Assembly (NCBI GenBank): GCA_902763365.1
Contig: CACWRT010000001.1
Location: 20,943-84,942, forward strand
Reading direction: 5' to 3'
Source of the DNA: an uncultured Ruminococcus sp.
GTDB taxonomy: Bacteria; Bacillota; Clostridia; Oscillospirales; Acutalibacteraceae
Length of the DNA: 64,000 bases
Made by a program: the position numbers and the translations under genes. Positions 1,456 through 61,755 of the stretch are shown piece by piece. Numbering within the stretch: position 1 is the stretch's first letter; the number at the start of each line of letters is the position of its first letter. The notes below the pieces were generated by a model that was not told where the DNA came from, made no database searches, and saw nothing but the letters and a program-made list of their open reading frames with translations.

Positions 1456-1713
1456 TCAAAAAGTTTCCTTGAATTCAAGCAGTCTGTTTGGTTCTACGGA
1501 GAGTGCGTCGGAAATGTCAAAAAGCAGTTCAAGAGAGATCGTTTTTACTATATTCGGGGCTTCGATCGCACTAAGATAAGAGCGGCTTATTCCGGTTTTT
1601 TCCGCAAGCTCTTCCTGACTCAGCCCCCTGAGCTTTCTGTAATATGATATATTCAGTCCGATCTGTATATACTTGCTTGTGTTTTTATATGAAATGGGTT
1701 TAGCTCTTGACAT
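1456..1713 (-). CDS. XRE-family helix-turn-helix transcriptional regulator
   Basis: GLNISYYRKLRGLSQEELAEKTGISRSYLSAIE is a classic HTH_3/XRE motif. I prefer the start at 1713 (GGTGA, 5-nt spacer). ATGs at 1719 and 1725 are also possible. Confidence 0.8.
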   Translation of the reverse strand: MSRAKPISYKNTSKYIQIGLNISYYRKLRGLSQEELAEKTGISRSYLSAIEAPNIVKTISLELLFDISDALSVEPNRLLEFKETF

Positions 1714-1931
1714 TTTCATCACCATAAATAGCATATACCATTTATAAAATAATATAAATAATTTAATAACTAACTTTTGCATTTTATTAAAAAGCATACT
1801 ATAATATATTCATAAAAAATAATCTTCGATACATGACGATTCATTATTTTTCGAAGGCTTGAAGATAATAGTCAGTCAAGGACACCCTGATTCCAATATT
1901 CCGCCGCCTTGTTACATAATAATCAATAATT

Positions 1932-2998: not shown

Positions 2999-3342
2999 AT
3001 GGTCAAACACAACTATTTACAAAAAGATTATACACCAAACGGAGTAGAAAAGCAACTGAAAATTCCGTTTGAAATAGAATTGAAATAGAATTAAAAATAG
3101 ATAGAAGTGATCCGGTCATGTTGCTGAGTCAGTATGTGGAGGAAATGGATTTAACTGACTTGTATTCCACTTATGAAAGAATAAGGGAAAATCAGGTAAC
3201 ACCGAGACAGCTTTTAAAGATATTGCTATACGGATATATGAATCGAGAGTATTCAAGCAGAGCAATAGAAACAAGATGTAAACGAGACATCAATTTCATG
3301 TATCTGCTGGAGGACAATCCTGCACCGGATCATTCTACAATA
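2999..3342 (+). pseudogene. IS1182-family transposase remnant (N-terminal ~110 codons only, frame broken)
   Basis: MVKHNYLQKDYTPNGVEKQLKIPFEIELK* is followed in another frame by IDRSDPVMLLSQYVEEMDL...PRQLLKILLYGYMNREYSSRAIETRCKRDINFMYLLEDNPAPDHSTI. This is the typical IS1182/DUF772 N-terminus. It is interrupted by a tandem 11-bp duplication (3071-3081, 3082-3092), and similarity ends after DHSTI. Confidence 0.75.
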
Positions 3343-3371
3343 GTAAGATATAACACAAATATTTGCATTAT

Positions 3372-3395
3372 AAAAAAGCACCCGTTTCCGAGTGC
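3372..3395 (-). terminator. Rho-independent terminator candidate for the 76-aa gene
   Basis: On the minus strand: GCACTCGGAAACGGGTGC stem-loop followed by TTTTTT. Confidence 0.5.
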
Positions 3396-3498
3396 CTTAA
3401 TTCATTCTTTGTCTTTCCTGTTAATAAAGTTATTATGTTTTTTATCAAAGGTACATATACTATAACCCGAAACTGTATGATAAGCACATAGCAAACAA

Positions 3499-16330: not shown

Positions 16331-16420
16331 CGCCCCTGCGGAGGGGCTGCCGCCCCTGCACCCTGCCGGGGCGGCAGCCCTGGACCCGCAAGCCTTTGAA
16401 AAGGCCTCTGCGAAACTTTT
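16331..16420 (-). repeat. GC-rich hairpin cluster plus an inverted fragment of the MITE-like element
   Basis: GGCTGCCGCCCC (16345-16356) pairs perfectly with GGGGCGGCAGCC (16368-16379). ggacccgcaagcctttgaaaaggcctctgcgaaacttt is the reverse complement of the left part of 44468-44510 with a few mismatches. Confidence 0.75.
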
Positions 16421-20260: not shown

Positions 20261-20295
20261 GGTCATCCTTGCGAATGACGGCTTTCCCAAAGGGG

Positions 20296-20448
20296 CAATG
20301 GTTTCAATTTAAGGTAAACATAATTGATAAAGTTTCGCTCAAGCCTTTTCAAAGGCTTGCAGGGTCCAGGGGCAGCGCCCTTGGTCGCTGCGTTAGCAGC
20401 GAAACAAGTCTTCAAATCTTTCGTCAAAGTCTTAGGTTGACAGCATTG
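20296..20448 (+). mobile_element. MITE-like element, older copy (153 bp)
   Basis: It is the same length as 44438-44590. There are 4 mismatches over the 129-nt core. The ends caatggtttcaat / gttgacagcattg are partly decayed, and the flanks tcccaaagggg / ccccgaagggg match 9 of 11. Confidence 0.75.
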
Positions 20449-20514
20449 CCCCGAAGGGGAAGCCGAGCGGCAGTTTTAACTTCTATTCTAGTTGTTCAGT
20501 AAATCGGGTACACC

Positions 20515-20553
20515 TTATAATGAATAATGAATAATGAATAATGAATAATGATA
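20515..20553. repeat. Heptanucleotide tandem repeat (TGAATAA x4 plus partial units)
   Basis: Read directly at 20521-20548. Confidence 0.9.
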
Positions 20554-39735: not shown

Positions 39736-39755
39736 TAATAGACGATTTTGCGGGT

Positions 39756-39850
39756 CAAGGGGCTTGAGCCCCTTGTGAGGTGCAGGGCGAGGAGCCCTGC
39801 CGGAGTCCAGAGGCAGAGCCTCTGGCGGATTCCAAAGGCGGAGCCTTTGG
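39756..39850. repeat. Tandem array of four perfect GC-rich hairpins, 25-26-nt period
   Basis: CAAGGGGC-ttga-GCCCCTTG (39756-39775). GCAGGGC-gagga-GCCCTGC (39782-39800). CCAGAGGC-aga-GCCTCTGG (39807-39825). CCAAAGGC-gga-GCCTTTGG (39832-39850). Confidence 0.9.
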
Positions 39851-40055
39851 CCGTCGGAGACACAGAAAACAGAACTCACCCATGCGAGCGCTGTAATATT
39901 TAAAGGAAAAAGGAATTAAAGGAAAAGCTATGATAACGATGAGGATAAAAGCTTGATATTATTGAAGAGATGTGTTAGAATATAGAGTGTATTTGTATGC
40001 ACATCGGTTTTGAGATGTATTTGATTAGGATTTGATATAGAAAGGAAGTTTCTGT

Positions 40056-42722: not shown

Positions 42723-44405
42723 TCAACCTATTTCAGGCACAATAGTAACAATGTCCTCTCTGTATGAAAAATATCCTTCTATTACATATATAATTTTTGA
42801 CAAGTCTCCTCCTGTAAGATCGGAAATAATTCTTTCGTTATCTCCCGAATACTCTGAGGTTATTTCAAATGAAAATGATGACATATAGGGCGGCAGATCT
42901 AAATGATCGTTTTCCACGGGTTTTACCGAGATATTTGTCCTGCATTCTTCCCTGCCGTCGTCATAGGGGATATAATCGATAGTGTTGTTATTTACAAGAC
43001 TATCCATAGAACCTACGGGAATAAGCGTCAGATTTGCTGCAGCAGTCACAGTTGTTTCTCCGAAATCTGTCAAGGATACAGAAGCATCAGATATATAATA
43101 ATATCTGCCTTTTCCCTGTTCGCTCAATGCAATGATATCGCCCTTGAAAGCACTTGTTTTATATGCGTTATTGGCTACGATGTCAACACTTACATTGTCC
43201 ACCGACTTGATCTGAGTCGGCAAAGTACTGGAAGAATCATATACACCGTTTTTATACATATCTATTTTGAACTGTTCCGGCATATAAGAACCCGGGGCAA
43301 ATATATTTATAAGAAATGTTCTCTCATCTATGGGGAAAATATTGTATGTGTAGTATCTTTTCCCGTTTTCATTATCACTGCTGCCGTTTGCGAAAGATAT
43401 CATCAGGTCGGAAGAATTTATCATTTCTGAATCGGGATTTGTAGCGATAAGCTGGAAAACAGATACATCCGAAGAATTACTTACAAAACCTTCCGTATCT
43501 AATCCGAGAAGCTCGTGATCACATACCATATCACATACAAGATCAATATAAAGTTCACGGGAACGACGCCGTTCAATTACCGGAGCTGAATTATTTCTTG
43601 TGTGATGCTCGCTGTAAACATAACTATCCTGCCCCGTATTATCTCCTGAAGCAGACATATTTATTATTTGATTTACAGCCTGTGCGCAGATTATTATAAG
43701 CACAGCTGCAAATACGCCGATAATACCTATCTTTCCAGCCTGAGTTTTATAAAAAGGTTTTCCGCTTCTTGAAAACAGCCCCTTTTTATCTTCGGGAGGC
43801 TCGGAATCAGCAGCAGCTTCAAGCAATTGCCTGAAAGAAATAAGTTTTTTCCCGTCAGTTCTTTCTGTTTCCGAAAGCGAATGTACTGCTTTTGTACAGG
43901 CGGAGGACAGCAGTCTTTCAGCCGAAGAAGAAGGTATCTGATATGCTGATGCTGTTTCTTCGATGGTCATGCCTACAAAAAAATGCAATACAAATATTTT
44001 GTATTCGCTGCTTGTGGTGCTGTAGTAGATCATCTGCATACACTGCATGAGCTTATAATAGTCAGACAGAATATCATCAGAAAGCATTACCTCTGAAGGT
44101 ATGTCATTTTCAATTATTCCATCCGGTATTTCATCCGCCGGTATGCCTCCTTTCGGGTTCTCCGTACAGATCTCGGCAGTCTGCCTGCGGATAACAGAAA
44201 AAATATCAGAAGATGTATTATATGTTTTTATTCGTGCAGATATAATATTCATGGATTTCTGAGCAGTTTTCTTTGCAGCTTCTTCACCCGGACAGAGTGC
44301 TGTACAAATGAAATTGATTTCAGGCTCTGCCGCTTCAAGAAGCTTTTGCAGTGATCCTTCATCTCCCGCTGCCGCTCTTCTCAGAAGATTTTGAACGTTT
44401 TTCAT
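42723..44405 (-). CDS. Membrane-tethered protein with a degenerate sigma-70/ECF-like N-terminal domain and a ~310-aa extracytoplasmic domain
   Basis: LLRRAAAGDEGSLQKLLEAAEPEI resembles the start of region 2. YKIFVLHFFVGMTIEETASAYQIPSSSAERLLSSACTKAV resembles the region 4 HTH. A single TM helix (IGIIGVFAAVLIIICAQAV) follows. The start is ATG 44405, 8 nt after AGGAGA. Confidence 0.7.
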   Translation of the reverse strand: MKNVQNLLRRAAAGDEGSLQKLLEAAEPEINFICTALCPGEEAAKKTAQKSMNIISARIKTYNTSSDIFSVIRRQTAEICTENPKGGIPADEIPDGIIENDIPSEVMLSDDILSDYYKLMQCMQMIYYSTTSSEYKIFVLHFFVGMTIEETASAYQIPSSSAERLLSSACTKAVHSLSETERTDGKKLISFRQLLEAAADSEPPEDKKGLFSRSGKPFYKTQAGKIGIIGVFAAVLIIICAQAVNQIINMSASGDNTGQDSYVYSEHHTRNNSAPVIERRRSRELYIDLVCDMVCDHELLGLDTEGFVSNSSDVSVFQLIATNPDSEMINSSDLMISFANGSSDNENGKRYYTYNIFPIDERTFLINIFAPGSYMPEQFKIDMYKNGVYDSSSTLPTQIKSVDNVSVDIVANNAYKTSAFKGDIIALSEQGKGRYYYISDASVSLTDFGETTVTAAANLTLIPVGSMDSLVNNNTIDYIPYDDGREECRTNISVKPVENDHLDLPPYMSSFSFEITSEYSGDNERIISDLTGGDLSKIIYVIEGYFSYREDIVTIVPEIG

Positions 44406-44437
44406 GGTCATTCTCCTGTTCATGATCCTTATGAAGC

Positions 44438-44590
44438 CAATACTGTCAACTTGAGGAAAAAACAATTGACAAAGTTTCGCTCAAGCCTTTTCAAAGGCTT
44501 GCAGGGTCCAGGGGCAGCGCCCTTGGTCGCTGCGTTAGCAGCGAAACAAGTCTCCAAATCTTTCGTCAATGTCTTAGGTTGACAGTATTG
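44438..44590 (+). mobile_element. MITE-like non-autonomous element (153 bp) with 13-bp perfect TIRs
   Basis: CAATACTGTCAAC (44438-44450) and GTTGACAGTATTG (44578-44590) are exact reverse complements. They are flanked by identical ccttatgaagc at 44427-44437 and 44591-44601. Confidence 0.85.
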
Positions 44591-44665
44591 CCTTATGAAG
44601 CTCTCTGCCGCAGCAAAGACTGCCTCGATATTGGCGCTGTTTTACCATTCAATGATCTGTATAGA

Positions 44666-61608: not shown

Positions 61609-61755
61609 CACGGAAATCAATTTACGAAGATCATATAAGATAAAATTTGTTTTTGGGGAAAGGGGTCCGGGGCGCAGAGCCTGCGCCTTGGTCGCTGCGT
61701 TAGCAGCGAAACAAGTCTCCAAATCTTTCGTCAATGTCTTAGGTTGACGGCGTTT
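61609..61755 (+). repeat. Chimeric repeat: left part of the 53508-type element fused to the right part of the 153-bp MITE-like element
   Basis: cacggaaatcaatttacgaagatcatataagataaaatttgttttt matches 53508-53553. ...ttggtcgctgcgttagcagcgaaacaagtctccaaatctttcgtcaatgtcttaggttgac is identical to 44523-44583. Confidence 0.8.

Follow-up and report, generated by a model that had tools for sequence, protein, structure and literature searches.

A probable IS231-type miniature transposable element with a three-hairpin interior in the leader of a sigma-like gene from an uncultured Ruminococcus

What is the short block of symmetrical DNA that lies just upstream of a sigma-like gene in an uncultured gut Ruminococcus, and how did it come to be there? 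The block is 153 bp in length and is found in a 64,000-nucleotide stretch of contig CACWRT010000001.1 (GenBank assembly GCA_902763365.1, positions 20,943–84,942), which we analyzed as a whole and refer to as the window. An earlier note, made from the letters of this DNA, described the block as resembling a MITE (miniature inverted-repeat transposable element). Our analysis arrives at the same view: the 153-bp segment is probably a nonautonomous transposable element of the IS231/IS1151 type, within the IS4 family of insertion sequences (IS), with a target duplication of 11 bp. It is a discrete 153-bp unit with IS231-type inverted ends, it is accompanied by an 11-bp flanking repeat at two independent sites, and it is absent from an orthologous locus. 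The hairpin-rich interior, in turn, belongs to a large and apparently undescribed repeat family of gut Oscillospirales. Coordinates of the features discussed are collected in Table 1.

The terminal inverted repeats (TIRs) of the element, hereafter copy 1, consist of the 13-mer CAATACTGTCAAC at 44438–44450 and its exact reverse complement at 44578–44590. The match is perfect over these 13 positions (13/13) and extends imperfectly to ~36 nt. Abutting the TIRs are two identical 11-mers, CCTTATGAAGC, which have no other occurrence in the window even with one mismatch tolerated. The left arm has a subterminal TTGAC, inverted relative to GTCAA, and pairs with the right arm. Three hairpins (HP1, HP2, and HP3) make up the core between the arms, and these are formed by CAAGCCTTT and AAAGGCTTG (44482–44490 with 44493–44501), by CCAGGGGC and GCCCTTGG (with one G-T pair), and by TCGCTGC and GCAGCGA, respectively. 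An alternative outer helix of the core is possible between GTTTCGCT and AGCGAAAC (44474–44481 with 44540–44547). The earlier note had reported the exact 13-mers and 11-mers, the internal hairpins with a possible outer pairing, and the lack of an open reading frame (ORF). Every coordinate and letter of the repeats was checked in the sequence and holds, all of the pairings are present, and the segment contains only short chance ORFs, with no gene called there in public assemblies.

Table 1. Features of the putative MITE, its relatives, and the sigma-like gene in the window.
Feature	Coordinates	Strand	Remarks
Left 11-bp target-site duplication copy, CCTTATGAAGC	44427–44437	no strand	Identical to 44591–44601
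Right 11-bp target-site duplication copy, CCTTATGAAGC	44591–44601	no strand	Same 11-mer as left copy
Putative MITE copy 1, 153 bp, noncoding	44438–44590	+	13-bp perfect TIRs and 11-bp direct repeat; orientation set by core (GTTTCGCTCAAGCC... on plus strand)
Left arm, IS231-type inverted repeat, CAATACTGTCAAC TTGAGG AAAAAAC AATTGAC AAA	44438–44473	+	Holds 13-bp TIR (44438–44450)
Right arm, reverse complement CAATACTGTCAAC CTAAGAC ATTGAC GAAAG...	44548–44590	+	Holds 13-bp TIR (44578–44590)
74-nt three-hairpin core	44474–44547	+	HP1 44482–44501, HP2 44508–44526, HP3 44527–44544
Sigma-like gene, 560 amino acids, leader carries element	42723–44405	-	Identical product called in 7 public contigs
Promoter candidate of sigma-like gene, TTCAAA-17-TGTTATAAT (TATAAT, extended TG)	44694–44666	-	Best upstream candidate in promoter scan
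Possible hybrid promoter: element-borne left-end TTGACA, 16 nt, GATCAT in duplication/flank	44449–44422	-	10/12 in promoter scan
Putative MITE copy 2, 153 bp, ends CAATGGTTTCAAT / GTTGACAGCATTG	20296–20448	+	Covariance model R1, 87 bits
Left flank repeat of copy 2, tcccaaagggg	20285–20295	no strand	9/11 identical to 20449–20459
Right flank repeat of copy 2, ccccgaagggg	20449–20459	no strand	9/11 vs left flank
Copy 3, degenerate mosaic	~61609–61755	+	BLAST of element vs window and direct reading
Diverged core-family member without IS231-type arms	16347–16416	-	R1, 37.5 bits, E ~1e-7
Array of four HP2-type G+C-rich hairpins, core-family relative without IS231-type arms	39745–39870	+	R1, 25.8 bits at 39745–39837

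The whole window was scanned for this layout, taken as exact TIRs of 10 bp or more that are directly bordered by exact direct repeats of 8–14 bp, and the sole match was the copy 1 site. The same scan carried out on 100 first-order Markov random windows returned one match in total (~0.01 per window), and we do not regard the layout as a product of chance. Compared with dinucleotide shuffles, the 153-mer folds with a z score of -9.3 for the plus strand and -7.0 for the minus strand. Reading frames of the element used as protein queries had no meaningful homologues, returning one irrelevant core-derived ORF and two weak matches. Covariance models of Rfam 15 gave nothing relevant on the element region at E up to 10 and nothing on the whole window at the gathering threshold, a scan for tRNA and tmRNA (ARAGORN) found none, and the 175-bp region had no BLASTN match among PLSDB plasmids or INPHARED phages. 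The literature was searched by both sequence and topic, and the element was not found described there. A tRNA-like cloverleaf was rejected, as HP3 and the outer helix would need the same bases at once, and as ARAGORN was negative. An integron attC site was likewise rejected: the core starts with GTT and ends with AAC, and no integrase accompanies it. In attC sites, the order of R'' and R' is the reverse of this GTT...AAC order.

The MITE-like reading of the earlier note would have been refuted had there been no further copies with conserved ends, and two more, copies 2 and 3, were found within the window. Copy 2, located downstream of a dockerin-domain gene, has 97% identity to copy 1 in its last 127 nt and only ~70% in the left arm, and its TIR match is 10/13. 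A three-way alignment shows copies 1 and 2 to be similar up to the terminal bases and no farther, and the contexts on either side are unrelated. Removal of copy 2 along with one flank repeat reconstructs an empty site that, as read from the sequence, is a hairpin with a 9-bp stem (GGCTTTCCC-aaa-GGGGAAGCC); the duplication at copy 1 is also a small palindrome (cCTT-atg-AAGc). These two cases, and there are only two, give hints of a target preference for the tops of hairpins.

Copy 3 is less complete. It has 63 nt (61686–61748) that are 100% identical to HP3 and the right arm of copy 1, and to the left of these there is no similarity. HP1 has been swapped for another G+C-rich hairpin, the ends have decayed, and the flanking repeat is absent. 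Covariance model R1, which scored the core of copy 1 at 87 bits, also detected the two armless relatives listed in Table 1; the array among these is composed of hairpin units of ~25 nt of the type GGNTCCARRGGCAGAGCCYYTGG. No further copies were found in ~17 kb of extra host DNA beyond the window, which brought the host sequence covered to ~81 kb. In several independent samples, short-read contigs terminate within copy 1, 2, or 3, as expected of a multicopy repeat in assemblies. One Logan contig (locus L141 in our numbering) begins within copy 3. Separately, a tandem run of about five copies of the 7-nt unit AATAATG occurs 70 nt downstream of copy 2 (~20519–20553).

Copy 1 is located in the leader of a gene for a 560-amino acid protein, for which the label "sigma-like" is fair but unproven; Pfam gives a single signal on this protein, a weak Sigma70_r4_2 match. 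The gene starts at an ATG (44405–44403, minus strand), with a ribosome-binding site, AGGAGA, at 44412–44417, 7 nt upstream. The gene calls of public assemblies have the same start. Together these back the distance of 33 nt between the end of the element and the ATG given in the earlier note. The protein itself is nearly an orphan, with four clusters in a collection of 5.8 billion proteins and 28–41% identity outside its own species, and its gene always has as neighbors a YceG gene and a large TPR-GGDEF gene.

The position of the element downstream of the promoter, likewise proposed earlier, is supported because the promoter is conserved at an orthologous locus lacking the element. In a related species (loci L134 and L135), the GGDEF, sigma-like, and YceG genes are syntenic, the sigma-like protein is 40% identical, and the divergent genes are separated by 186 bp that have no element. 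A 15-nt promoter block, AAAATATGTTATAAT, is kept in these loci. The insertion, consisting of the element and one repeat, adds 164 nt, and therefore appears to sit inside a leader that is otherwise ~90 nt in length and is ~254 nt with the element. The related locus is too diverged for the insertion site itself to be aligned. As for the ends of the element as promoters, the outward-facing TTGACA hexamers are indeed present, but the companion claim that neither end has a good -10 was slightly too strong, as GATCAT forms a possible hybrid promoter with the left-end hexamer. The function of this hybrid is doubtful, and we do not rely on it because its predicted start falls inside the Shine-Dalgarno sequence, which would thereby be removed.

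Might the segment instead be a cis-regulatory RNA (a riboswitch, an attenuator, or a thermosensor, for instance) dedicated to the leader of the sigma-like gene, with its symmetry due to the RNA fold? The location between promoter and ribosome-binding site, and a fold far better than those of shuffled sequences, are what such an RNA would have. However, the segment recurs almost unchanged in other, unrelated intergenic regions, where its orientation toward the neighboring genes is the opposite one, and this largely refutes the idea. The orthologous leader of the related species has no such segment, and Rfam was negative even at the permissive threshold. When the leader is folded from its inferred start up to +30, a closed, independent hairpin domain is predicted for the element, one that leaves the pairing of the ribosome-binding site and downstream coding sequence unaffected, and no terminator-like site is present. 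We consider a dedicated leader RNA highly improbable.

The ends of the element bear on its transposase family. The IS231 subgroup has ends of the form CAT-------AA--TAA--- and direct repeats of 10–12 bp, and the IS4 subgroup has ends of the form -AATR--------WTW---- and duplications of 10–13 bp (De Palmenaer et al. 2008, PMC2266710, Table 1). At both full copies the duplication is 11 bp in length, within the range of the IS231 subgroup. The IS231-subgroup consensus has 8 conserved positions; three of the element's ends agree with it at 7 of these, and the fourth, the left end of copy 1, agrees at 6. All four have A rather than T at position 3, and thus terminate in CAA, unlike the CAT of the subgroup. 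For the IS4-subgroup consensus, NAATR is found in all four ends, and WTW is found in full in one end and at two of three positions in the others.

We also compared the four ends of copies 1 and 2 with those of three fetched elements by ungapped identity over the terminal 20 nt. These were IS4 from E. coli K-12 (ends TAATGCCAGTCAGTTAAGC / TAATGCCGATCAGTTAAGG, 12-bp duplication), IS231F from pBtoxis (ends CATGCCCATCAACTTAAGG / ...AAGA, 11-bp duplication, the same length as at our element), and an IS231-subgroup element from a Clostridium perfringens plasmid (ends CATGACCGTCAACCTAAGAAG / CATGGCCGTCAACCTAAGAAG, transposase 36% identical to that of IS231F), which we take to be IS1151. Identity to the C. 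perfringens element was 10–16/20, with the two right ends at 15–16/20, GTCAACCTAAGA being identical, and the left ends at 10–14/20. Identity was 11–14/20 to IS231F and 9–12/20 to IS4; the copy 1 left end is at 14/20 to both IS231F and the C. perfringens element. The probability of such matches by chance, per single comparison, is ~4e-7 for 16/20 and ~3e-5 for 14/20 (right ends, ~4e-7 to 4e-6). Similar to the IS231 subgroup (IS231A–F of the Bacillus cereus group and the C. perfringens plasmid element), the element has ends of the type 5'-CA..(C/T)GTCAAC(C/T)T(A/G)AG. On the basis of end identity and the 11-bp duplication, we tentatively place it with the IS231 subgroup of the IS4 family, whose ends it appears to fit better than those of the IS4 subgroup. 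The likeness to IS4/IS231-type elements, offered previously as analogy only, appears to be more than that, given that the right ends match the C. perfringens element at 15–16/20, that the ends largely agree with the consensus published for the subgroup, and that the duplication falls within 10–12 bp. Our confidence that the transposase partner belongs to the IS231 subgroup is somewhat lower than that in a MITE as such.

The C. perfringens element (locus L151; plasmid NZ_CP075923.1, 57.7–59.4 kb) adjoins cpe and is flanked by inverted, not direct, copies of GGGGTAG(C/A)(G/A)TC. These flanks may be either true inverted repeats longer than the CATG... ends or a palindromic target. Two candidates for partners or longer relatives were rejected. 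At 3118–3465 (plus strand) of the window is an N-terminal DUF772 (IS5/IS1182-type) transposase fragment, cut after ~80 conserved residues, that represents a decayed IS unrelated to the element ends; as a partner, this IS1182-like fragment belongs to a different family and has no similar ends nearby. A GGTTGACAGCATTGCC match ~200 nt downstream of the core in locus L113 has no matching left end, as the end of a longer relative would require, and may be a -35-like TTGACA site.

Several known systems resemble the element in part. Like MIC231, a cassette moved in trans by the IS231 transposase, it has no transposase between its ends. MIC231 is, however, ~0.7–3 kb in length and carries genes (PMC6199540), unlike the 153-bp, noncoding element. 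The IS231 subgroup as surveyed in 2008 was almost entirely confined to the B. cereus group (PMC2266710). Our element differs in this respect as well, its host being an uncultured Oscillospirales bacterium. Correia elements of Neisseria and ERIC/IRU elements of enterobacteria are short and intergenic, have TIRs and a target duplication, are cotranscribed with their neighbors, form long hairpins in mRNA, and can carry outward promoter hexamers. The element is similar to these in its position in a leader, its predicted hairpin fold, and its outward TTGACA. Correia elements duplicate TA, unlike the 11 bp duplicated here, and are linked to a different transposase family.

A number of observations weigh against transposition by an IS231-type enzyme. 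In tBLASTn searches with the E. coli IS4, IS231F, and C. perfringens transposases, no match was obtained on the window or on any of the fetched loci; for the window, this agrees with the previous statement that it has no transposase with matching ends. Searches of IMG/VR and JGI metagenomes for the arm patterns gave only chance matches, located inside coding regions, and the host species is apparently absent from these collections. Full copies number only two in the 64-kb window. At copy 2, the flank repeat is a G+C-rich palindrome in its own right and is weaker for that reason as independent evidence of duplication. No empty site was found by exact-protein look-ups of flanking genes and of three distant homologues, as all same-species contigs either carry the insertions or break inside them; one of these look-ups, for window positions 1456–1797, returned nothing. 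Lastly, at least 118 core loci of other genomes have neither IS231-type arms nor an 11-bp repeat. The core family as a whole is therefore unexplained by this transposition mechanism.

This wider family is defined by a 29-nt block, GTTTCGCTCAAGCCTTTTCAAAGGCTTGC, which is identical in the at least 118 loci from a collection of species-representative genomes. The matches listed come from Ruminococcus, Pseudoruminococcus, Acutalibacteraceae, Oscillospiraceae, Oscillibacter, Angelakisella, and Huintestinicola, often with many copies in one genome and in many cases at contig ends; no contig of the host species of our element is among them. Relatives of the core usually have a constant HP1 followed by HP2 and HP3, whose stems vary between copies yet stay complementary. 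The family is modular and mosaic: after the constant hairpin come similar hairpin units, varying in number, and optional modules. Subfamily-specific modules occur on either side of the core, including a terminator-like downstream module, AAAAACAGTCCGGTGGACTGTTTTT, in many relatives. The relatives are mostly intergenic and downstream of genes, are scarce between divergent genes, and have no orientation bias with respect to flanking genes. The gene families linked to the at least 118 loci are only common housekeeping families, with no transposase among them. A related core copy had no Rfam match, and we found no description of the family in the literature.

The arms and flank repeats of the window copies have no clear counterpart in the family. 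A strict search around ~120 cores in other genomes for an inverted repeat with a 9–12-bp flank repeat found none, and at a loose setting there were, besides copy 2 of the window, 8 matches, no real excess over the 6 and 5 in offset controls. One locus (L017) that had seemed to combine a core with TIRs and an 11-bp flank repeat was rejected as a tandem array with a 141-bp period. At positions 1–300 of L017 are 130-bp units, each with HP1, whose ends pair as a 14-bp stem enclosing a spacer of 11 nt, equal in length to the duplication in the window. Illumina adapter sequence (CCCTACACGACGCTCTTCCGATCT; AGATCGGAAGAGCACACGTCTGAACTCCAGTCAC) was observed at the ends of public contigs from metagenomes and metagenome-assembled genomes (start of L095; positions 1–60 of L137). 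In L095, the adapter leads into a long, perfect palindrome that surrounds HP1 and is probably an assembly artifact.

These properties of the family raise the alternative that the element is no more than the local representative of a mosaic hairpin family of the REP/BIME or BOX type, spread by an HUH/RAYT-type enzyme, recombination, or slippage, and that the repeats at 44427–44601 are by-products, for example of local or tandem duplication. Like BOX of Streptococcus pneumoniae and BIME/REP of E. coli, the core family is modular, mosaic, present in many copies per genome, and mostly downstream of genes. In line with this alternative, the core is widespread without arms, the stems covary as in structure-recognized elements, the copies are mosaic (copy 3 shares its 63 nt with copy 1 and nothing leftward, and the left arm of copy 2 has diverged), and the L017 array mimics TIRs with an 11-bp flank repeat. 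In the window, however, neither full copy is tandemly arranged. There, two 153-bp copies stand in unrelated, unique contexts, each with an 11-bp flank repeat outside its inverted repeats and with similarity ending at the termini, and their ends match IS231-subgroup inverted repeats at up to 15–16/20. REP/BIME (REPIN) sequences are short palindromes that have a conserved 5' tetranucleotide of the GTAG type, lack a target duplication, and are associated with a RAYT gene. The element has a duplication and no GTAG signature, and the at least 118 core loci share no recurring gene family in their vicinity. The core family likewise has no sequence similarity to BOX and BIME/REP, no GTAG REP signature, and no linked RAYT-like gene, and, unlike these, one version of its core is framed here by IS231-type ends and a target duplication. 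We consider membership in a REP/BIME- or BOX-like family to be improbable as an account of the element.

A further possibility concerns the interior and would leave intact the interpretation of the ends as those of a MITE. The 74-nt core may itself be functional, as a multicopy small RNA or as a recombination or replication signal in single-stranded DNA, and be under selection, with the transposon as one of several vehicles. Covariation was assessed with 30 copies taken from other genomes, in which pairing holds for 98.3% of cells and 11 of 23 pairs have changed on both sides. None of 500 shuffles reached the observed values, and sliding the partners caused pairing to collapse to 25–53%. Such values favor a function of the core, as do the identity of the 29-nt block across many genera and the terminator-like module downstream in many relatives. 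On the other hand, the 30 copies were chosen by an exact match to HP1, so that HP1 conservation is by construction, and the shuffles ignore relatedness, so that kinship of the copies can beat them even with no structural constraint. In addition, there is no orientation bias against flanking genes, no consistent strand asymmetry of fold stability, no promoter seen to be conserved across subfamilies, and no match in Rfam. We therefore hold a function for the core to be a tentative and rather unlikely possibility. The same low weight applies to its more specific form, in which the core would be a structure-constrained functional module (RNA or single-stranded DNA), common to many Oscillospirales genera and forming mosaic hairpin arrays, that an IS231-type transposon captured as one vehicle.

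Taking the element to be a MITE of the IS231/IS1151 type, its history may be envisaged as follows. The arms of ~36–43 bp would be IS231/IS1151-type TIRs, and the space between them is filled by a 74-nt module of the large mosaic Oscillospirales repeat family. Mobilization in trans by a DDE transposase of the IS231 subgroup, encoded elsewhere in the genome, is most likely. For IS231A, a conservative cut-and-paste mechanism is cited in PMC2266710. The transposase would cut the target with an 11-bp stagger, and repair would generate the 11-bp direct repeat. Having presumably landed between the promoter and the ribosome-binding site of the sigma-like gene, the element is therefore expected in the leader transcript, where it would be cotranscribed and fold as a closed hairpin domain within the ~254 nt. 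Its effect on the sigma-like mRNA would probably be small or modulatory, for instance through RNA stability or through processing of the long stem by RNase III.

As a transposon, the element is ordinary in kind: the IS231/IS1151 type is already known, and it is the host group that lies outside the classical picture. Its presence suggests that transposition of this type has been active in an uncultured Ruminococcus-like gut bacterium, and it is a case in which a structured insertion of 164 nt has arisen naturally in the leader of a regulator-like gene, between promoter and ribosome-binding site. A practical consequence is that short-read assemblies of these organisms are interrupted at fixed points by the element and its relatives. 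Of greater interest is the core family, with its invariant 29-nt hairpin block and perfectly compensated variable stems in many genera. If the core is indeed functional, major bacteria of the gut and rumen would possess a class of structured multicopy element that has so far gone undescribed.

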